Positions 8,062 through 59,097 of a stretch of DNA of 64,000 nt are shown in pieces. Below the pieces are notes generated by a model that saw nothing but the letters and a program-made list of their open reading frames with translations, made no database searches and was not told where the DNA came from. Numbering within the stretch: position 1 is the first letter of the stretch; every line of letters begins with the position of its first letter. Position numbers and translations under genes: made by a program. The stretch lies in NCBI RefSeq assembly GCF_055900595.2, contig NZ_CM148325.1; one strand, given 5' to 3'.

Positions 8062-9312
8062 TTAACTGTCAGACGCTGTCACCTGCGGCGGCGTCTGGCG
8101 AAAACGACGCAACTCTACCAGTACCAGCAACAACAACACGCCGATAATCAACAAACCAAAACCACTCGCGCTTGCGGAGGCCACCGGCGTCATCATCGCT
8201 CCCAGACCGCCCAACAGCGCTGCGCCTATAGCATCGCCCGTCACGTTTTGTGCCGTCCACAAACCGTTAATCCGCCCTAACATCGCTTCCGGGGTTTGCG
8301 TTTGCAGCATTGTGTATTGCAGCAACGAACTAACCGCGCTCAACCAGCCGAACAGCGCCAGACAAACCACGCCTAAAATCCACATCGGCATCAGGCCAAA
8401 CAAACCAATGGCGAGGAACGATCCCAGCGTGGAGAGCAGCATCAATAACCCTGGTCGCGCACTATGTGCCAGCTTCCCGCTGGTTAACGCGCCAATAGCT
8501 GCACCGAGCGGGATCGCCGCATAGAGAAAACCAATCTGTGCCGCCGACATCTGCCAGTTGTCAGCCAGCGCCGGATACAGTACCCGTACCGCGCTCGCCA
8601 TCGTCAATAAACCCCCCAGCAGCGCAATCCCTCCCACCAGCGGGCTGGCAAGCAGAAAACGAAATCCTGCCAGTAATGATTTCAACGGATGCTCACGCGG
8701 TTGCGGTGGCGGAGGTAGCGCCGGAAGGCTTAACAACGGTAGCAAGGTAATAAACGTGCCCGCCGCCGCCAGCCCGTAGTTCCAGGCTACGCCGCCAGTC
8801 GCCAGCAGTAAGCCGCCAATCATGGGCGAAATTACCGATCCCAGCCGCACGGTCAACATGGTGATTGCCCCGGCCTGCATTAAATTTTCACGCCCAACTA
8901 ATGCCGGAGTCGCCGCCAGAAGCGCCGTAACGCCAAGTGACGCGAAAAAGCCATCCCATAATCCGAGTAAATAGATTGCCAGCAAAGACGGCTCCGGCAG
9001 CAACGCGTTCAGGCACAGACCAATGAAGCCAATGCCACAGGTGCCGCGCGCCAGCAAAATCACTTTTTTGCGCTCATAGCGATCCGCCAGCACACCGCCG
9101 ACCATCAAGCCGACAAACATCGCCCCGCCGGTCAGCGTCACCGAAAGACCCACCTGCCAGGTAGAATGCGTCATCATCTGGATCTGCACTGGCACCGCGA
9201 CGCCGAGCAAACCCAGAGAAACAATAGAGATAAAACGAGCGAGGAATACTGCGCGAAACGCCGGGTGCGTTTTCAACAGGCTGAGGTTAAGCAGCCAGGA
9301 TTGTTTATTCAT
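8062..9312 (-). CDS. entS: Enterobactin exporter (MFS transporter)
   Basis: 416-aa highly hydrophobic ORF; position between fepB and fepD as in the K-12 cluster. Confidence 0.9.
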
Positions 9313-50049: not shown

Positions 50050-50553
50050 TTATTGATAGTGTTTTATGTTCAGATAATGCCCGATGACTTTGTCATGCAG
50101 CTCCACCGATTTTGAGAACGACAGCGACTTCCGTCCCAGCCGTGCCAGGTGCTGCCTCAGATTCAGGTTATGCCGCTCAATTCGCTGCGTATATCGCTTG
50201 CTGATTACGTGCAGCTTTCCCTTCAGGCGGGATTCATACAGCGGCCAGCCATCCGTCATCCATATCACCACGTCAAAGGGTGACAGCAGGCTCATAAGAC
50301 GCCCCAGCGTCGCCATAGTGCGTTCACCGAATACGTGCGCAACAACCGTCTTCCGGAGCCTGTCATACGCGTAAAACAGCCAGCGCTGGCGCGATTTAGC
50401 CCCGACATAGCCCCACTGTTCGTCCATTTCCGCACAGACGATGACGTCACTGCCCGGCTGTATGCGCGAGGTTACCGACTGCGGCCTGAGTTTTTTAAGT
50501 GACGTAAAATCGTGTTGAGGCCAACGCCCATAATGCGGGCAGTTGCCCGGCAT
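50050..50553 (-). CDS. insB: IS1 InsB reading frame (expressed as an InsAB' fusion by -1 frameshift)
   Basis: 167-aa ORF ...[33 protein letters not shown]...; overlaps insA. Confidence 0.85.
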
Positions 50554-50747
50554 CCAACGCCATTCATGGCCATATCAATGATTTTCTGGTGCGTACCGGG
50601 TTGAGAAGCGGTGTAAGTGAACTGCAGTTGCCATGTTTTACGGCAGTGAGAGCAGAGATAGCGCTGATGTCCGGCGGTGCTTTTGCCGTTACGCACCACC
50701 CCGTCAGTAGCTGAACAGGAGGGACAGCTGATAGAAACAGAAGCCAC
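50472..50747 (-). CDS. insA: IS1 InsA protein
   Basis: 91-aa [43 protein letters not shown]... Confidence 0.85.
50488..50499 (-). promoter_or_regulatory. IS1 programmed -1 ribosomal frameshift site (A6C run)
   Basis: Minus strand reads CTTAAAAAACTC in the insA / insB overlap. Confidence 0.5.
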
Positions 50748-50801
50748 TGGAGCACCTCAAAAACACCATCATACACTAAATCAGTAAGTTGGCAGCATCA
50801 C

Positions 50802-51430
50802 CCATTACCGCCCATAATGATGATATTAGTGACGCCCTCACTAAATTCTGCGTAGCTCTCAATATCATCATTTGGATCAAAAGTTTCTTTATCCTTACCT
50901 GACCACTCAGCACCGCCAGACTGAGTGATGATATTTTGTGGTTTAATATTCCAGTCCAGCTCATAACGTTCAATACCATCGCCCTCAATGATATTTTTCC
51001 CCGTTGTGATTGCCTGAACGGCAAGCCATTCAATACGTGCACGAATAGCTTTAGCCTGATTTACAATCGCCTGTTTAACTTTAATATTACGCGCTCCAAA
51101 AGCATTGTATTGCTCAGGTGATACACCAGCAGGGCGCACAGCTAACTTATTTGGATCAATGCTGCTTTTCGGCTTCATATAGCCTGGACGAATTGTTTTT
51201 GATTCGAACCCTTCGTCACGTGAAACTTTACTACCCACCATAGGAGAACAAAACGCTGCAATTGGGATATTTGGATCGTCGATTGTATCAAGAATAATAT
51301 CGCGCGATTCAAACATTACCGAGCGAGTAAAAAACAAACTGGTAAACAACGCATTTAGTTGTTTTTGTACATCTACAGCATTAACCACCTGTACAAGCTG
51401 AGTAGGCGAATATAAATCAACCATACGCAT
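50802..51430 (-). pseudogene. Divergent lambda-E-like major capsid protein gene, 3'-truncated by IS1
   Basis: ATG at 51430 gives MRMVDLYSPTQLV... (compare lambda E MSMYTTAQLLA); continues ...NIITQSGGAEWSGKDKETFDPNDDIESYAEFSEGVTNIII (compare lambda E NNITQSGGTEWSKRDKSTYDPTDDIEAYALNASGVVNIIV), then runs into the IS1 end after about 206 codons. Confidence 0.6.
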
Positions 51431-51640
51431 CCTCTTTGCATTCATTAAAAATAATTGTGGATATATGCTATCACCGATATTTGTCATGCGAACACATGCA
51501 ACCGAGTGCAATGTTGTATAAAGTTTTGGGGTGACAACTTCAGTGCGGACAATTAGTGTTAATATCTTCACTCCCTTTGGTCGGGATTTATGTAGCATGC
51601 CGGAAAATTTATTTTTTCTGGCTTTTTTTATTGGCAATAT

Positions 51641-52090
51641 TTAAAACGGGATATCATCTCCCCATTGCTCATTATCTCCCACTGGTGGCTGGCTTCCTTG
51701 CTGATCTGCCTGTTGTTTTGCTCTGTTCAGTGCGTCAGTAGCCTGCCCCTGTTGGCCTTTATTGCCGCCCGGTCGCACCGATCGCGCACTGATTACGCTG
51801 TCTGCGATAACCTGCCAGCCCTGCCGCGTTTCGCCGTTCTGTCCAGTCCACTGGCTCATCTGCATGTTACCCGCCACGCTCAGGAGTTCGCCTTTGTGAT
51901 GCTTTGCCAGCGCGTCGGCTTGTCTGCCAAACGCCAGGACAGATAACCACATCGTCGCCTGACCGTCATCCGACTGACTGCAGGGCAGTGATACCGCCAT
52001 ACGCGCCAGCGTCATGGGGGTGCCCTTGCTGGTCTGTTTTGTCTGCGGGTCGTCCACCAACCGCCCGTAAACTGATATTTGCGCCGTCAT
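51641..52090 (-). CDS. ssb: Single-stranded DNA-binding protein
   Basis: 149-aa ORF with an OB-fold-like N-terminal region, a Gly/Gln-rich linker and the acidic SSB tail ending DDIPF. Confidence 0.75.
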   Translation of the reverse strand: MTAQISVYGRLVDDPQTKQTSKGTPMTLARMAVSLPCSQSDDGQATMWLSVLAFGRQADALAKHHKGELLSVAGNMQMSQWTGQNGETRQGWQVIADSVISARSVRPGGNKGQQGQATDALNRAKQQADQQGSQPPVGDNEQWGDDIPF

Positions 52091-52332
52091 GCTGCCTGCT
52101 CTCCGGACTTAATATTGATTGTTGTCACTTCCTCCGCTTCAGCAATCTCCCGTTCGGTCAGAGTGGCAAAGTTTGCAGCCGCCGTTGTCATGAATGCGCT
52201 AATCAGTTCGGGATGTGCTTTCGCGTATCCTTCCCCGGCGTTGCGGTCGATGATTTTTATCGACACCCTTAACCAGTGTTCCGTCAAATCAAGGGCGTGC
52301 GATTGTGATTTTTTTGTGTGCTTCGCTGTCAT
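52087..52332 (-). CDS. Hypothetical protein, translationally coupled to ssb
   Basis: 81-aa ORF whose stop overlaps the ssb start (ATGA); no family recognised. Confidence 0.45.
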   Translation of the reverse strand: MTAKHTKKSQSHALDLTEHWLRVSIKIIDRNAGEGYAKAHPELISAFMTTAAANFATLTEREIAEAEEVTTINIKSGEQAA

Positions 52333-52379
52333 AGGCTTTATCTCACAGCAGTAAATTAAAATTTTTGCGTTTTAACCCT

Positions 52380-52610
52380 TCACCTGTTCACCTTTTGATA
52401 TTTTCTCTTTTAATTCATAATGTTAATGGGTGAACAGTTTCACAAAAACTATTCACCAACTGTTCACCACTGTTCACCCTTGAAGCTCAATAAACAATCA
52501 AAAAGGTGAACAGTGAATAGTTTGGTGAACAGTTCATAAATAACTGTTCACCCTATAATATACTGATATAAAAGATATTTATGACAGGGTGAACAGTGGT
52601 GAACAGTTAT
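52380..52610. repeat. Iteron array (about ten copies of CTGTTCACC / GGTGAACAG in both orientations), putative satellite origin of replication
   Basis: Copies near 52385, 52429, 52451 (variant), 52461, 52471, 52505, 52524, 52545, 52588 and 52598, interspersed with AT-rich spacers; the octamer TGTTCACC is the P4 type I iteron as recalled; lies directly 3' of the primase gene. Confidence 0.65.
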
Positions 52611-52619
52611 TCCATAAGT

Positions 52620-54440
52620 TTAATTTTTGCTATCGTCATTAGTGACCGATACACATGATGGCATCCAGTCTTCTGATTCCTCCGTCAGTGTCACGTTTGA
52701 ACGCAAACCGTGCTTCGTTTTCCGTTTCATATACTCCCTGCCATATTCCGCCATTGCCCCCGGCATATCTTTACCGAAGCGCGTCAGTGTTACAGGTTTA
52801 CCAAACCCATGTGCCCTCATATAAGCCAGATAGGCATGATAGAGATACCTGCGTGGGCTAAATGGCACAATTTCAGCATTACCCACTAACAGGCCATCAC
52901 ACATTACCGATGCCATGAGATAGCCGCAGAAGTCCACCAGCGAATCCCCCTCTCGCTTTATCGCCAGTGCTTCTTCAGATTTCTGCTGCTCATATAACAG
53001 GCGTCTGGCTTCGTCCTGATCATCAAACCGTGTAAGCAGATGACGAATCACTACCGCCAGCTCACCTTCTATTTTTTCCGCCAGCATCGAATCGCGTTCG
53101 TTCTCCGGTACAACTTCCGAAAAATTGAATATCACCCGACGACGTGAGATCCCCCCGCTGCGGTCACTGAATGACATGGCGTTATTGTTAACCGCCAGCA
53201 CTACTGCCGGAATACGCGTTGAATAGGGGGCTTTGTGTTTCGGGTCAATTGCCACCTTGTCACCGCCTGTAATGGCCTTAATCCCTGCCCCATCACCAGC
53301 GTAGCGGGTCATATCCGGCATGATAATCAGCGAAAAGCCAACCACTAACGCACGTTCCCTTGCATCTTCCAGCGCCTTCATGCTTGCTGATACTGTATTA
53401 GCCTTACCCGCCAGCATGGTGCAAATCTCCGCCATCACACTTTTACCACTTCCCCCCGGCCCTGTTACCTCAATGAATAACTGCCAGTCGTACCGGTTCG
53501 CCAGCACCATGAATAATGCCGCCAGTACGCGATCTGCCTTGCGGTCATTCTCAGCCACCGAACGGCGCAACCACTTCCAGAAATTCGGCGCATGTGTTGC
53601 CAGCGTTTCCCCCTCTGCTGGTGGGCTGAAAGGTAATTCACTGGCAATTAACAACCAGTCGTTTTTGTTATGCTCCCGAAAATTACCTGTTCTGGTATCA
53701 AATACCCCGTTACTGAATCCAATCAGGTTACGGGCTGTATTCCCCATTACAGGCAAACTTAACTTCATGGTATCTACCGCCGATTTAATGGCGTTCTGCG
53801 AATAGCTGATCTCCACATCAATGAAAATCTGCGCCATAGCACGCTGTAACTCTTTATCCTGAACCGGCTCCCATACAACGCCGTTGTAATGATGAACGGT
53901 GTCAGAGTCGGCATTGATTGCCAGTTCGCCGCCGTAATGTGCCAGGAGAACTTCACCGCGCTGGCTGGCCCCCATCTGATTCAACGCCAAAGATGAAGCA
54001 CGCTCGTCATTTTTGCGCTCTGCCTTCTTCACTGGCAGTTCAATCACCAGACTTTCCCCATGCTCCGCTTCAGCTTTTAGGCCGACAAGGCGCGGAGTCC
54101 AGTCTTCAGGCTCTCGATCAACAAAGCTACGGTAACAACGTGCTTCCTTTACGCCTGCAATAGCAAGTAATGTCGCAACCTTCGTCAGATTTTTCTCTGC
54201 GATCTTTCCGGCACGATAAACACGCACATAATGACGGCCTTCATCGATAATTTGCATATCATCCAGGTTTTCCAGTTGTTCCGTACCCAGAATTACTGGT
54301 GGTGTATCATCTGCTGCAATATGCTTACCCGCCCATTCATTCCATTCTTTTGCATGGCTCCAGGCATCACTGCCAGCAAAAATGATGACTTCTGTCATTT
54401 TGTCGCGCGGTTGGTATTTTAAGTTCGGAGCACGTTTCAT
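52620..54440 (-). CDS. Primase/helicase-type replication initiator (P4 alpha / D5-like, P-loop NTPase)
   Basis: 606-aa ORF; Walker A GPGGSGKS in the C-terminal half; iterons immediately downstream. Confidence 0.8.
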   Translation of the reverse strand: MKRAPNLKYQPRDKMTEVIIFAGSDAWSHAKEWNEWAGKHIAADDTPPVILGTEQLENLDDMQIIDEGRHYVRVYRAGKIAEKNLTKVATLLAIAGVKEARCYRSFVDREPEDWTPRLVGLKAEAEHGESLVIELPVKKAERKNDERASSLALNQMGASQRGEVLLAHYGGELAINADSDTVHHYNGVVWEPVQDKELQRAMAQIFIDVEISYSQNAIKSAVDTMKLSLPVMGNTARNLIGFSNGVFDTRTGNFREHNKNDWLLIASELPFSPPAEGETLATHAPNFWKWLRRSVAENDRKADRVLAALFMVLANRYDWQLFIEVTGPGGSGKSVMAEICTMLAGKANTVSASMKALEDARERALVVGFSLIIMPDMTRYAGDGAGIKAITGGDKVAIDPKHKAPYSTRIPAVVLAVNNNAMSFSDRSGGISRRRVIFNFSEVVPENERDSMLAEKIEGELAVVIRHLLTRFDDQDEARRLLYEQQKSEEALAIKREGDSLVDFCGYLMASVMCDGLLVGNAEIVPFSPRRYLYHAYLAYMRAHGFGKPVTLTRFGKDMPGAMAEYGREYMKRKTKHGLRSNVTLTEESEDWMPSCVSVTNDDSKN

Positions 54441-54724
54441 TTGTTACCTCCGGCAACTAACATTGCCCGAATTTTGCGGATATAGCCTGCGGCACGCCTC
54501 TGATTATCTGTCTTGCAATTTTTTACCAGAATGAAATCTCTTTCGAACTGCTGACGCGGCATAACACATTCAAAATCATAACCATCACGCAAATAAGAGA
54601 CACGACGATCATCAACCGAAATAATCTTTACCCGATAGCCATAGCTGTCTTTGAAAATATCCCCAAGGCTGATTTTTGAATGAGTTTGACCGCTGGCAAT
54701 AAAGCCAGAAAATTTATTTTTCAT
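54437..54724 (-). CDS. Hypothetical small basic protein, translationally coupled to the primase
   Basis: 95-aa ORF with a GGAG ribosome-binding site 8 nt upstream of the ATG; stop overlaps the primase ATG (ATGA). Confidence 0.45.
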   Translation of the reverse strand: MKNKFSGFIASGQTHSKISLGDIFKDSYGYRVKIISVDDRRVSYLRDGYDFECVMPRQQFERDFILVKNCKTDNQRRAAGYIRKIRAMLVAGGNK

Positions 54725-54727
54725 TTT

Positions 54728-54952
54728 TTATTCTCCGGTATAGCTCTGGTCGTGTATTTTTATAGCTTCATCCAGCTCTTTGATGACAGGATCAAGTAAC
54801 GTAATTAACGCTCCAGCTAAATTAGCATCCCGTTCATCGTGTTCCGCATTTGTTGTCCCATCAAGCCAGGTTGATAAGATTTCTCGCATATTTTTGCCAC
54901 AAACGAGCGCGTTTTCAGCATGTGTCAGCACTTTAAAATAAAGATCATTCAT
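54728..54952 (-). CDS. Hypothetical small acidic protein
   Basis: 74-aa ORF in the same operon-like array upstream of the primase. Confidence 0.4.
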   Translation of the reverse strand: MNDLYFKVLTHAENALVCGKNMREILSTWLDGTTNAEHDERDANLAGALITLLDPVIKELDEAIKIHDQSYTGE

Positions 54953-55148
54953 GGCACACCTCCTGACGAATACGGGCGGCGAATATCATCACGTAGCCAG
55001 TTGGGGATTGCAGCCGGGCTTCCTGTTCGCTGGCGGCCTCGATGGTAATCACGCGCGGTTGTGCCGTACTCAGGGCGATAAAACGCCAGATGTATTTATT
55101 CAGGTTGTGCGGGTCCCGCCCTTGCGGGTGTGTGGTATGATTTCTCAT
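54945..55148 (-). CDS. Hypothetical small protein (first gene of the leftward replication operon)
   Basis: ATG at 55148 with a GAGG ribosome-binding site 7 nt upstream gives MRNHTTHPQGRDPHNLNKYIWRFIAL...; the longer ORF to 55259 is probably an extension. Confidence 0.4.
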   Translation of the reverse strand: MRNHTTHPQGRDPHNLNKYIWRFIALSTAQPRVITIEAASEQEARLQSPTGYVMIFAARIRQEVCHE

Positions 55149-55287
55149 AGCTACCTCGATACTGTTGCTATCGTTGGTGGTTAGAAGCCCGTTGGTGTTC
55201 CTAGCACCTTCGGGCTTTGCTTTTTTAAGTGCCTCCGTGTTAAGGTGGTCACCTAACAATGAAAAGGCTAATTCAATAGGTGGTCAC

Positions 55288-55479
55288 TTGTCAACGATCA
55301 AACGCGATAAAAGTCCTAAGGGTGATGGGCAATCTCCACAATTCAGAATGCGAATTTCTCCAGAGCTAAAAGAGCAATTCGACAAAGAAGCGCAGAGCGA
55401 CGGCATAAGCCTAGCCAACTGGCTTAAAGAATTAGGGCGCAAAGAGCTGCTACGGCGCGGTATTGAACCAAAAGGATAA
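55288..55479 (+). CDS. Putative ribbon-helix-helix (Arc/MetJ-like) DNA-binding protein
   Basis: TTG at 55288 preceded by AGGTGG; product ...FRMRISPELKEQFDKEAQSDGISLANWLKELGRKEL has the beta-strand then two-helix pattern of Arc-type repressors; an alternative ATG start at 55348 is possible. Confidence 0.5.
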   Translation: MSTIKRDKSPKGDGQSPQFRMRISPELKEQFDKEAQSDGISLANWLKELGRKELLRRGIEPKG

Positions 55480-55506
55480 GAATAATTGAAGTCAAGGAGC
55501 TAACAC

Positions 55507-55863
55507 ATGAAATACGAATTCTTCGCAACAAGTAGCAGTAGTTTGGATGTATACATAGTCACTGTATCAAACGATTCTGGCTCTCTAATCATGACTTGTA
55601 ATTGTCCAGCAGGAAGTAAAGGTATTCTATGTAGACACCGTAAAGCTTTAATTACCGGAAAAATCCGCGGTATATTCACTCCCCCAAGAAGGAATAATCC
55701 CGAAAAATTACAAGAAGCTATAAATTTAATAGCCACATATGGCATAGATAAAACATTAAAGTTGTACACTGATGAGTTAGAACGAGCAGAACAGACTTGG
55801 ATAAGTGTTCGCGATAATTTGAGAGCAATGATAAACGCTCTTGTTGAACCACCTAAATATTGA
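55507..55863 (+). CDS. Small SWIM-type zinc-finger protein
   Basis: 118-aa ORF with an AAGGAG ribosome-binding site; CNCPAGSKGILCRH fits the SWIM CxCx(n)CxH motif. Confidence 0.55.
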   Translation: MKYEFFATSSSSLDVYIVTVSNDSGSLIMTCNCPAGSKGILCRHRKALITGKIRGIFTPPRRNNPEKLQEAINLIATYGIDKTLKLYTDELERAEQTWISVRDNLRAMINALVEPPKY

Positions 55864-55929
55864 ACTGTTCACATTGCCTATCAGGCGATAACCTCGTATT
55901 CTGATTAAGGCTAACTATATACTCACATT

Positions 55930-55955
55930 GGCGACCAATTCTGGTCGCCTTTATC
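55930..55955 (+). terminator. Rho-independent terminator after the SWIM gene
   Basis: GGCGACCA-ATTC-TGGTCGCC hairpin followed by TTTATC. Confidence 0.5.
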
Positions 55956-55994
55956 TACCATTTTTATAATATCATAGATTAAGAGTGTTAATCC

Positions 55995-56816
55995 TTACCC
56001 CCTGAATGGAATTGATGAGGATTTAATTTCCACAGAACCAAATCCTCTTGAATCCAAAAACATTTTTATACCAGCCTCAATAAAATCATAATCGCTTGTC
56101 GGGCCAATTGTAATGCTTTTAATTGGTAACTTTCTATTATCTTTATTATTAATAATGATATAAGGGATGATACCATTATTATTTATTCTAAATTTCACAT
56201 CTGGCATTTGTATCCACGGAGTAAACACCAGTCTAAATTCATTTTCTTCGATAAAACTAGGATGTTTAAAAAATGGGATATATTTAGATATAAATTGATA
56301 CGTAGAGACCATTGTTACAAAATGATCATTCATTTCTTTAATGTTAATACCATTACAAGAAAAAAACTCATCCAACTCCTTACTCATCTTTGTAATATCG
56401 TCATTATTTGAATATATAACATCATGTGCAACACAATTTAAATAAATATTTTGACAAAAACTCACAAGTTCATCCGCATCAAATTCAATGCAAACGCCCT
56501 GTTTATTTCCGTAACCTCTCCACTGACTTAACTTATCGTTTTCTTTACAAAAAGATATGCTATAAACATGTTTATCAATCCCTTTTTCTTTTTGTAACTT
56601 CCCTTTCTCATACATGTCAAGAGACTTGAGCAAAATAGTTTTCTTATCTTTTGGGATGATATTATCATCAACTATTTTAATTGTATTTCGAAAACATTCA
56701 CATCCATGGTTAGACTCCTCTTTATCATTTAAGAAATATATATTTGTAGCCCATAAAGAATTAGAGTCTAATATACCTTTCAAACCAAAAAGATCTGTAT
56801 AATGAAATATAGCCAC
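55995..56816 (-). CDS. DUF2971-like protein of unknown function on an AT-rich cargo segment
   Basis: GTG at 56816 preceded by AGGTGG gives (M)AIFHYTDLFGLKGILDSNSLWATNIYFLNDKEE...; the N-terminal aromatic-HYT ... LW ... NDxxE pattern is assigned to DUF2971 from memory; markedly AT-rich by eye compared with the neighbouring int/alpA. Confidence 0.6.
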   Translation of the reverse strand: MAIFHYTDLFGLKGILDSNSLWATNIYFLNDKEESNHGCECFRNTIKIVDDNIIPKDKKTILLKSLDMYEKGKLQKEKGIDKHVYSISFCKENDKLSQWRGYGNKQGVCIEFDADELVSFCQNIYLNCVAHDVIYSNNDDITKMSKELDEFFSCNGINIKEMNDHFVTMVSTYQFISKYIPFFKHPSFIEENEFRLVFTPWIQMPDVKFRINNNGIIPYIIINNKDNRKLPIKSITIGPTSDYDFIEAGIKMFLDSRGFGSVEIKSSSIPFRG

Positions 56817-56833
56817 AATGCCCCACCTAATAG

Positions 56834-57064
56834 TTAAGTCGTTTCCCACTCACCTCGAATCCATGCCTGCACTTCTGAAAGACGATATGCAACAGCAGTG
56901 GAACCAATCTTGATCCGCTTAGGAAATTTTCCTTCCTTCTCCAGCTTCCAGCGTGTGCTGTTCGCAAGAGTGGTTAGCTCCCGACATTCTTTCTCACGGA
57001 TCATACGATCGATGTTAGGAATGTACTCCAGACCCTTTTTATCAACAATTGCCATTTTTTTCAT
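56834..57064 (-). CDS. alpA: AlpA-family transcriptional regulator / excisionase-like protein
   Basis: 76-aa MKKMAIVDKKGLEYIPNIDRMIREKECRELTTLANSTRWKLEKEGKFPKRIKIGSTAVAYRLSEVQAWI..., immediately downstream of the integrase. Confidence 0.8.
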   Translation of the reverse strand: MKKMAIVDKKGLEYIPNIDRMIREKECRELTTLANSTRWKLEKEGKFPKRIKIGSTAVAYRLSEVQAWIRGEWETT

Positions 57065-57065
57065 G

Positions 57066-58301
57066 TTAACCAGCCTTTTGTTTGAGGATTGTCACTTTTG
57101 AATCAGCACCTGCGATGCTATTGAGATATGTAGTCCAGAGTTCCAGAGCATCCAGTTTTTTAGCCATAAACTTACTCCGGTTGTAAACACCCGCCACGCC
57201 AGGTAGCGCATGGCCTAACAGTTGTTCTACTACATAAAATTCAACACCGAGATCACTTAGATGAGTAGATAGCGTTCTTCTAAGGTCGTGTAGTGACCAT
57301 TGTTTTTCATGGCCCAAACGTTTACCGATTTTCCCCCCAATCTTGCTTACGCTTTCTCTAATTCGCAGACTTCCCAGCACATAACCAGTATGTTTTGTCT
57401 CTTCGTGAACATCCGTTACCCACTGTCGTAGAATTTCAGGTACTGGTCTGACGATTTCAACACCAGTTTTTGAGTGATCTTTTGGTACCGTCCAAACCCA
57501 ACTTTCGAGATCCCATTCGCTCCATTCAGATAATCGGGCTTCACTCATTCGACATCCAAATACTGTACAAAGCACAAACATTTTTCGCGTGTATTCAGAC
57601 ATTAGTTTTAAATCAGGCTCGACAAAAATTGCCTTCCAGAGCTGGCCGAGTTCGGCTTCATCCAGAACCCGATCCCGCTTACCTGCAATCTGCCCCACAT
57701 CACTCATGCGCAAATCCTTTAAAGCATCACACGTCGCGTACTGGCGTACCCGACAAAAACGAAGAGCTAATTTAGTGTCAGAAAAAACATACGCCGCCAT
57801 AACTGGTGCATTACGTTTAATTCGGTCAAAACAGTCCAGCCATTCATATAGGTGAGTGTCATTTACGGGCAAATGACCGATATAGGGAAAGATATGCTTT
57901 CGAAATCTGCCAAGCGTTACAGCATGAGTTTTACGACGCACCTTACAGTAATTTTCATACCAGTAATTTAGTGCATCCTCCACTGTGACCGGCTTTAAGC
58001 GTTCTTCAGCCTGAATCTTAATCTGGATACGCGGATCACGTTTGTCAGCCAACCAACCACGGCACTCGTCGCGCTTTTCCCTTGCCTGTTTGAGTGACAT
58101 ATCAGGATATTTACCCAACGTTAGCCAGACCGGAGCAGCCCGGCCACCTGCTAACCTGTAGAAGAAAACAAAGCTCACAGCCCCTTTAGTACTCACACGA
58201 ATAGAAAGCCCCTTTCCATCAGCAATGGTGATCTGCTTTTCTCTGGGTTTCCCCAGATATCCTTTAAGCGCTTTGTCGCTCAGTTTGTTCTCGCCAGCCA
58301 T
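57066..58301 (-). CDS. Tyrosine recombinase, P4-type integrase
   Basis: ATG at 58299-58301 gives MAGENKLSDKALKGYLGKPREKQITIADGKGLSIRV...; C-terminal catalytic region with ...HDLRRT... and ...LLGHAL...Y motifs; the 5' end sits about 160 bp from the point where the E gene breaks. Confidence 0.85.
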   Translation of the reverse strand: MAGENKLSDKALKGYLGKPREKQITIADGKGLSIRVSTKGAVSFVFFYRLAGGRAAPVWLTLGKYPDMSLKQAREKRDECRGWLADKRDPRIQIKIQAEERLKPVTVEDALNYWYENYCKVRRKTHAVTLGRFRKHIFPYIGHLPVNDTHLYEWLDCFDRIKRNAPVMAAYVFSDTKLALRFCRVRQYATCDALKDLRMSDVGQIAGKRDRVLDEAELGQLWKAIFVEPDLKLMSEYTRKMFVLCTVFGCRMSEARLSEWSEWDLESWVWTVPKDHSKTGVEIVRPVPEILRQWVTDVHEETKHTGYVLGSLRIRESVSKIGGKIGKRLGHEKQWSLHDLRRTLSTHLSDLGVEFYVVEQLLGHALPGVAGVYNRSKFMAKKLDALELWTTYLNSIAGADSKVTILKQKAG

Positions 58302-58433
58302 TTTTAGCCCCAAAAAGCAATACAAGCTGCAATACAGAGATGATTGCAACACACAGATAACGAGGAAAATTCAGTGAAAGCACCAGATAAACTTATTCTT
58401 TATTATCAAAAGATTAAGTGTAAAAACCAGCAA

Positions 58434-58709
58434 CTACACGAAAGCCTCAGAAAGCCATGCTAAGTGCTTGGGTTTGACATAACCCGGCGTAAATTCAGAG
58501 GTGGAGCCGCCACGGGATCGGATAACCTCACCGGAAACAATCGGCGAAACGTACAGCGCCATGTTTACCAGTCCCGGAATTTGTGAGAGATAGACTTTTT
58601 CCGTGGTGAAAGGATAGGTTTCACGGAAAAACAGGCGCAGAAACAGCGGATCGAACTTAAAGTGATGCTGGGTCGATGCCAGTAATTCTGCAGTTGTATA
58701 TACAGACAT
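58434..58709 (-). pseudogene. Lambda-like major capsid protein E, N-terminal 82 codons only
   Basis: MSVYTTAELLASTQHHFKFDPLFLRLFFRETYPFTTEKVYLSQIPGLVNMALYVSPIVSGEVIRSRGGSTSEFTPGYVKPKH then unrelated LAWLSEAFV and a stop; similarity to lambda E ends at 58463/58464. Confidence 0.8.
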
Positions 58710-58764
58710 AAATTATTTCCATAAAAAAAGCCGCACAGGCGGCCTTTGTTGATGAAGGGGAAGA

Positions 58765-59097
58765 TTAAACGATGCTGATTGCCGTTCCGGCAAACGCGGT
58801 CCGTTTTTTAGTCTCGTCGCTGGCAGCCTCCGGCCAGAGCACATCCTCATAACGGAACGAGCCGGACTTGTAGAACGTCAGTGTGGTGCTGGTCTGGTCA
58901 GCAGCAACCGCCAGAATGCCAACGGCTGCACCGTCGGTGGTGCCATCCCACACAACCAGCTTACGGGTAGTGCCATCCAGCATCAGCGGGGTCATTGCAG
59001 GCGTTTTCGCACTCAATCCGCCAGGCGCAATTGCTGTATGAGCCGGATCACTGTTACCCAGCGGCTGGTAATGGTTAAACTCTTCTTTTGTCGCCAT
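58765..59097 (-). CDS. Head decoration protein (lambda D-like)
   Basis: 110-aa [42 protein letters not shown]...FAGTAISIV, close to lambda gpD as recalled. Confidence 0.9.

Follow-up and report, generated by a model that had tools for sequence, protein, structure and literature searches.

We analyzed a stretch of 64,000 nucleotides (nt) of contig NZ_CM148325.1 (RefSeq assembly GCF_055900595.2; hereafter the window, to which all coordinates refer), in which three small open reading frames (ORFs) precede a P4-type primase-helicase gene. All three ORFs are real, conserved genes under purifying selection in their annotated frames, and the element that carries them is a helper-embedded phage-inducible chromosomal island (HE-PICI) at the capsid-E site of a lambdoid prophage, of the published 11capE type. 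We consider it reasonably probable that they are the leading genes of the replication operon of this satellite, encoding an Icd/Kil-type protein (ORF67) and an accessory factor (ORF95) together with its partner (ORF74). The four genes of the operon are as follows.

55148-54945, minus strand: ORF67, 67 codons, an Icd-like small protein and the first gene of the operon.
54952-54728, minus strand: ORF74, 74 codons, a predicted two-helix hairpin protein that fills a variable slot.
54724-54437, minus strand: ORF95, 95 codons, a DUF4222 protein of the RgdR family, whose stop codon overlaps the primase start (ATGA).
54440-52620, minus strand: primase-helicase of the P4 alpha family, 606 amino acids (aa), with D5_N, DUF5906 and Pox_D5 domains assigned by profile matches.

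An earlier sequence-only reading had placed three small ORFs of 67, 74 and 95 codons ahead of the primase, and all of them were found at those positions. It had described them as stacked with 4-8 nt overlaps, which holds for ORF67/ORF74 (8 nt, ATGAATGA, with AGGAGGT upstream) and for ORF95/primase (the 4-nt ATGA overlap, with GGAGGT upstream) but not for ORF74/ORF95, which are separated by a 3-nt spacer (TAA-AAA-ATG, with GGAG upstream). As read directly from the sequence, the stack does run straight into the primase ATG via ATGA. ORF67 has a Shine-Dalgarno sequence of its own (GAGG, 4 nt ahead of the ATG), and the signature of a coupled stack, namely a stop/start overlap with a Shine-Dalgarno sequence within the preceding gene, is present at two of the three junctions, the third being the 3-nt spacer. 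No terminator-like sites were found between these genes on the minus strand, and a DNA-level search of phage genomes returned no match. We also considered a longer, 104-codon form of ORF67 with a TTG start; it was ruled out, as alignments of the upstream part carry 1-nt indels and show conservation at the nucleotide level.

Conservation of the stack was examined by scanning IMG/VR with the primase, which gave 80 loci with primase identities of 85-100%; the IMG/VR loci, three reference loci and the window made up the 82 loci analyzed (two loci were without an Icd-like match; L numbers below denote individual loci). The ORF preceding the primase overlaps it by 4 nt in 79 of these 82 loci, an 8-nt overlap between the Icd-like ORF and the following ORF is seen in most of these, and the order Icd-like gene, variable slot, DUF4222 gene, ATGA and primase recurs in related loci. 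The trio is also present in Citrobacter, but there it lies ahead of a DUF927 replication protein instead of a P4-type primase. The ratio of nonsynonymous to synonymous substitution rates (dN/dS) was calculated by the Nei-Gojobori method for the annotated frame and for the other two frames. Median values were 0.45 in frame and 1.1-1.4 in the other two frames for ORF67, and 0.41 versus about 1.05 for ORF95; ORF74, which was compared against Citrobacter and metagenome copies with 64-67% aa identity, gave 0.20-0.25 in frame versus 0.7 and 1.5-1.7 in the other frames. Because the arrangement recurs in 79 of the 82 loci and dN/dS falls below 1 only in the annotated frames (the single value of 0.7 for ORF74 apart), the layout is beyond chance. 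Absence of coding conservation, judged by substitution pattern, had been named in advance as grounds for rejecting the ORFs; this check was run, and they stand as genes.

These data also bear on the possibility that the leader ORFs are purely regulatory, i.e., that translation alone matters (for anti-polarity or coupling, as for P4 eta/kil) and that the peptides are functionless. The conserved 4-nt and 8-nt overlaps would fit such a role, and translation of P4 eta/kil controls termination in the left operon (Tommasini, Mageeney and Williams 2023, citing Forti et al.). However, purifying selection acts on the peptides themselves (dN/dS of 0.2-0.45 in frame versus, with the exception noted, 1 or more out of frame), their predicted folds were rated confident, and the phenotypes of RgdR, a relative of ORF95 described below, act in trans. 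Purely regulatory leader ORFs hence appear very improbable to us.

Profile and structure searches of the three peptides, as had been suggested, were run and identified ORF67 as Icd-like, ORF95 as DUF4222 and ORF74 as a phrog_2196 hairpin. The statement that none of the peptides is recognizable was not borne out, in that profiles place ORF67 and ORF95 in curated families. Searches of PDB sequences with all three peptides gave nothing at E<=10. ORF67 matches NCBIfam NF033153 ("host cell division inhibitor Icd-like"; 68.9 bits versus a cut-off of 25, E 2.8e-19) and the PHROGs family phrog_6196 (E 2.9e-42), carries an Icd-like label in RefSeq too, and is 49% identical to ECs1577 of Escherichia coli Sakai; a megablast-detectable copy is present in 1330 of 5426 complete E. 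coli genomes. Residues 85-132 of the P4 "cI ORF137" match NF033153 as well, and this Icd-like part is the counterpart of the nested genes kil/eta (Tommasini, Mageeney and Williams 2023). These similarities make ORF67 an Icd-like protein, homologous to P4 Kil/Eta and to ECs1577. As in the Icd-like family, it is the first translated ORF of its operon and overlaps the next gene. Its core is predicted to adopt a beta-beta-alpha-beta fold (residues 19-61, pLDDT about 80) behind a disordered N-terminus.

Several observations concern the Icd-like family at large. The name "transcriptional repressor" that PHROGs gives to Icd-like proteins derives from the obsolete P4 "cI ORF137" annotation. In P4 (L088, 8171-8584), the Pfam family Phage_ASH matches ORF137 residues 22-85, which overlap the C4/CI RNA gene (8420-8507), and part of the Phage_ASH family may be the translation of an RNA gene. 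The Icd-like domain is fused to an N-terminal domain, HNH/AP2-like by eye, in a 225-aa ORF of L053, and occurs in duplicated copies flanking the isrK and C4 RNA genes in L085 and L077. Such fusions and duplications agree with domain swapping as described for the "Bro network".

Part of the sequence-only interpretation holds up on the side of ORF67, whose family comprises host cell-division inhibitors and includes one relative proposed as the effector of cell death triggered by a phage gene. It could be asked whether the stack is an abortive-infection or superinfection-exclusion system, in which the Icd-like peptide would be the death effector upon phage sensing and the small genes and the primase would be needed for triggering. 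In a prophage-like locus of ECOR61 with six linked genes, including an Icd-like gene and a primase gene, expression of phage orf24 leads to cell death, this response requires the six genes, and it is abolished when the Icd-like gene is removed. However, ORF67 lacks the long N-terminal extension of the ECOR61 protein, no match in PADLOC was found for ORF67, ORF74 or ORF95, and the universal linkage to a satellite replication gene fits a life-cycle role equally well, so that we regard a defense system of this kind as unlikely.

ORF95 matches Pfam DUF4222 (PF13973; 78.2 bits versus a cut-off of 27) and is 45% identical to RgdR (ECs1581; E 6e-26). RgdR is a 99-aa protein with a pI of 10 from island OI-51 of enterohemorrhagic E. 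coli (EHEC), which activates LEE1 (from the enterocyte effacement locus, LEE) and type III secretion, represses motility and, in electrophoretic mobility shift assays, binds DNA non-specifically; its orthologue c1493 in CFT073 is also functional, and an RGD motif at residues 20-22 was reported to be important for RgdR activity (Flockhart et al.). The core of ORF95 is predicted to form a basic, Tudor/KOW-like barrel with a helix after it, as judged from a fusion model and fold matches. The best-characterized relative of ORF95, RgdR, acts as a pleiotropic regulator whose DNA binding is non-specific, and not as an anti-repressor, a role that had been suggested for small proteins of this kind.

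DUF4222 also occurs outside satellites, in 50 lambdoid phage records detected by tblastn. Its context was surveyed in five inspected phage loci: in SfIV, mEp390 and Eeyore, a DUF4222 ORF of 55-62 aa terminates at the start of the replication gene or overlaps that start, and in a Stx2 phage and a Klebsiella phage the DUF4222 ORF lies within the cII-to-O interval. Such ORFs are often unannotated or covered by a coding sequence in another frame or strand, as seen in SfIV (L004, 2438-2659) and likewise in L090 (about 1962-2162) and L091 (about 1977-2162), i.e., Klebsiella ST101-KPC2phi6.3 and a Stx2a phage.

ORF74 matches phrog_2196 (E 3.9e-35, residues 1-73 of 74) and is 30% identical to ECs1580 (E 2e-5); no match was found in Pfam, NCBIfam, PADLOC or PDB sequences. 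A profile search of 1.84 billion representatives yielded 51 matches (E<=1e-3), almost all with lengths of 65-85 aa, and the gene is present in 72 of the 5426 E. coli genomes. In a word-indexed protein search, the matches of both ORF74 and ORF95 were near-identical only. The AF2 model of ORF74, built from a 41-sequence alignment, is a two-helix hairpin (helices 2-32 and 37-72, pLDDT 91). Judged by these matches and the model, ORF74 is a member of a small helical-hairpin family (phrog_2196, ECs1580-like). Its position is filled in other elements by unrelated ORFs of 106, 66, 154+106, 78+70+72 or 142+77 aa; hhalign comparison of the ORF74 family with two other slot ORFs gave probabilities of <1%, and thus the slot variants are not detectably related to each other. 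Relatives of ORF74 lie directly upstream of a DUF4222 gene in 8 of the 11 contexts seen (the window, L079, L035, L085, L087, Sakai with ECs1580, L094 and L097), and the 106-aa slot gene is always paired with a different DUF4222 subtype. ORF74 tracks the DUF4222 subtype across elements, and we infer that ORF74 and ORF95 form a recurrent functional pair.

A different role for the slot is that of an anti-repressor or helper-derepression factor, in which one of the peptides, most plausibly ORF74, would bind the helper repressor as P4 epsilon binds P2 C. The sequence-only reading had pointed out that small proteins encoded just upstream of the replication gene of a satellite often act as anti-repressors, derepression factors or interference factors. 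The setting that it assumed is present here, as these are satellite genes co-expressed with the replication gene, and the layout is P4-like with a variable slot. None of the three peptides is homologous to epsilon, however, and the searches detected no anti-repressor domain in them. In P4 it is epsilon that comes next after kil/eta, with an overlap of 8 nt, and the ORF74 slot is swappable among unrelated small genes, a pattern expected of helper-specific factors. However, PF25738, the epsilon family, was not matched by ORF67, ORF74 or ORF95 at E<=0.1 in Pfam, and hhalign of the ORF74 family against P4 epsilon gave a probability of 0.2%. Furthermore, in E. coli PICIs the helper induces the satellite through AlpA and not the reverse (Fillol-Salom et al. 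2018), an embedded satellite is replicated passively along with its helper (Tommasini, Mageeney and Williams 2023), and ORF74 follows the DUF4222 subtype across elements. An anti-repressor in this stack is, in our view, quite unlikely.

Upstream of ORF67, an alignment of seven elements was used to delineate the region that may control the operon. The following features were recognized.

55348-55479, plus strand: unannotated gene of a 43-aa ribbon-helix-helix (RHH) protein, divergent from the operon; candidate repressor.
55243-55297: promoter/operator region, with an invariant -35 TTGACA at 55294-55289 on the minus strand.
55185-55217, minus strand: conserved leader hairpin with 13-nt arms and one compensatory A-T to C-G change between elements.
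55157-55173, minus strand: hairpin CGATA-N7-TATCG, immediately adjoining the ORF67 Shine-Dalgarno sequence.

The promoter/operator region contains a pair of near-palindromic operators (AGGTGACCACCT type) at a distance of 35 bp, of which one falls within the promoter spacer and the other near the expected start site. The RHH protein matches Arc-like repressors (phrog_228, E 4.4e-6) and, weakly, HicB. Its gene is conserved in 30 loci, including Sakai OI-51, with a dN/dS of 0.19 on its own strand; an antisense frame has a similar dN/dS, which is possible when the frames share third codon positions, and RefSeq has a pseudogene on the opposite strand at this place instead. Across loci, six variants of the N-terminal beta-strand of the RHH protein match six groups of operator sequences, such as RISPE with GTGACCACCT, RIAPE/RIVPE with GTGTACACCT and RLPEE with GGTAATTACC. 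Because the RHH strand and the operators co-vary, a function of the RHH protein as an operator-binding regulator of the operon is supported, and we regard it as a candidate for the operon repressor. A literature search found no paper pairing PICIs with a ribbon-helix-helix regulator, and the global repressor in Gram-negative PICIs has been described as unclear (Fillol-Salom et al. 2018). With regard to the two hairpins, the CGATA-N7-TATCG element has an invariant stem and a hypervariable 7-nt loop in about 50 loci, with a compensatory stem variant (CGTTA/TAACG) in L074 and L087. An interpretation of the hairpin at 55185-55217 as the terminator of a plus-strand antisense RNA was dropped, as its T-run is not conserved between elements and is present in some of them only.

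In the reading we favor, in which the three ORFs lead the replication operon of the satellite, transcription would proceed from the promoter with the TTGACA box through ORF67, ORF74, ORF95 and the primase gene. This promoter is overlapped by the two operators, probably bound by the divergent 43-aa RHH protein, and the candidates for opening the switch would be RHH derepression and/or activation by AlpA. Ribosomes would then read ORF67, ORF74, ORF95 and the primase in succession, and translation of ORF67 together with the 8-nt overlap would carry them into ORF74. By analogy with P1 Icd and P4 Kil, ORF67 may block host division or be toxic once the satellite is switched on. ORF95 might serve as a basic, non-sequence-specific accessory factor that binds nucleic acid or polymerase and would be made in a fixed ratio with the replication initiator via the ATGA overlap, ORF74 may be its partner or modulator, and the primase would then fire the adjacent iteron origin. 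A more far-reaching proposal, which we hold only tentatively, is that DUF4222 could be a Tudor/KOW-like adaptor of RNA polymerase or the replisome, with ORF74 as its partner, produced in a fixed ratio with the initiators of lambdoid phages and satellites, and that RHH proteins with element-specific operators could be the "missing" master repressors of Gram-negative PICIs.

Several points weigh against the favored reading. Translational coupling across ORF74/ORF95 is less certain because their junction is a spacer. ORF95 has LGD at residues 20-22 where RgdR has RGD, Foldseek searches with the ORF74 model returned generic helical hairpins only (E>=0.69), and ORF67 and ORF95 were modelled together through an artificial linker, from an alignment of only 18 rows. 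No Rfam match at E<=1 to the C4/CI antisense RNA or to isrK/seqA was found upstream of ORF67 in the interval 50500-58800, and the positive controls (P4, L077 and L085) did match. Among relatives, the C4/CI RNA is present in L077 and L085 and absent from ten other related loci scanned. As this RNA controls icd in P1 and kil in P4, its absence from the window leaves the regulatory analogy with these two incomplete.

The satellite to which the small ORFs and the primase belong is approximately 8 kb in length. Its genes are arranged in the order integrase, AlpA, a DUF2971 gene, the SWIM and RHH genes (both on the plus strand), the three ORFs and the primase, followed by an iteron-rich region, an 81-aa gene, an SSB (single-stranded DNA-binding protein) gene and a lambda-E-like capsid gene cut by IS1. 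It lies within 50050-58709, inserted in the major capsid gene E of a lambdoid prophage; E. coli T-HYM1 and KMi006 carry intact relatives inserted in the same way, and there the satellite is followed by the 3' part of E. The positions of the flanking features are given below.

58709-58434: N-terminal 80-odd codons of the prophage major capsid gene E.
58352-57066: integrase, a satellite gene.
57064-56834: AlpA, a satellite gene.
51637-50798: the satellite's own E-like capsid gene, truncated by IS1.
50050-50747: IS1, which truncates the satellite capsid gene.

An integrase, AlpA, a primase with an origin, late genes and an insertion in the capsid gene of a lambdoid prophage, which together define an HE-PICI, are all found here, and a helper-embedded PICI designated "11capE", with the site Phage_cap_E_80, has been published by Tommasini, Mageeney and Williams (2023). 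At 52432-52548, immediately downstream of the primase, lies a long inverted-repeat, iteron-like region with GTGAACAG-type repeats, which is probably the satellite origin; Rfam matches in this region were to miRNA models only and were judged spurious. Between alpA and the operon, the SWIM zinc-finger and DUF2971 genes (55507-55863 and 55995-56849) gave weak PADLOC matches to candidate defense families (PDC-S62, E 4.9e-5, and PDC-S31, E 2.4e-4) and may be satellite cargo.

The stack itself is standard in E. coli PICIs and corresponds to the left operon of P4, and the present finding mainly refines annotation. Two of the three gene families were already named, the RgdR phenotypes had been published, and P1 Icd and P4 Kil had been studied. 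What emerges here is that RgdR, known as a virulence regulator, belongs to a conserved gene family adjoining satellite primases, that its domain also precedes lambdoid replication genes, and that the RgdR-family gene has a recurrent partner in the ORF74 family. If the adaptor proposal for DUF4222 is true, it would explain the pleiotropic effects of RgdR on LEE and motility. The co-varying RHH gene/operator pair is a testable candidate for the silencing of Gram-negative PICIs, a question left open by Fillol-Salom et al. (2018). The more promising leads are the linkage between DUF4222 and replication initiators in general, and the RHH/operator switch.

Comparison with known systems places the window element in context. 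It resembles 11capE in having an integrase, AlpA and dynamic, replication and late zones (the late zone including a capsid gene of its own), and in its insertion near codon 80 of a lambda-like capsid gene E; it differs in that its capsid gene is truncated by IS1, and the 11capE paper gives no account of the three small ORFs, DUF4222 (0 occurrences), the RHH gene or the operators. The DUF4222 genes of lambdoid phages are likewise located in an early (rightward) operon and terminate where the replication initiator gene starts or overlap its start, but they encode only the 55-62-aa core, without the N-terminal tail and C-terminal helix of the satellite versions. The P1 immI operon (c4, icd, ant) is related through the first gene, as NCBIfam names the Icd-like family after P1 Icd. 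P1 Icd is reportedly a small cell-division inhibitor, with an ORF that is linked to the downstream gene by an overlap and by translational coupling. The gene downstream of icd is, however, an anti-repressor gene and not a primase gene, and P1 icd is controlled by the c4 antisense RNA, which is absent in the window.

The left operon of P4 (kil/eta, epsilon, orf151, orf106 and alpha) parallels the window operon more extensively, with an Icd-like domain first, then overlaps of 8 nt and several small ORFs stacked ahead of a primase of the P4 family. Epsilon, which follows kil/eta with an 8-nt overlap, occupies the same place as ORF74, a correspondence in position only. P4 differs from the window in having the C4/CI RNA and isrK upstream and in having no DUF4222 gene, and its epsilon (PF25738), orf151 (no family) and orf106 (DUF5375) are unrelated to ORF74 and ORF95. 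The closest known systems are EcCIEDL933 (OI-51 / CP-933C / Sakai Sp7; ECs1577-ECs1582) and EcCICFT073 (c1493). The Sakai island is chromosomal, whereas the window element lies within a prophage capsid gene; the Sakai slot holds two extra small ORFs, and protein identities to ORF67, ORF74 and ORF95 are 49%, 30% and 45%, respectively. Nevertheless, the Sakai operon shows the same arrangement, with the Icd-like ECs1577, three small ORFs including ECs1580, RgdR (ECs1581), the ATGA overlap and the primase ECs1582.

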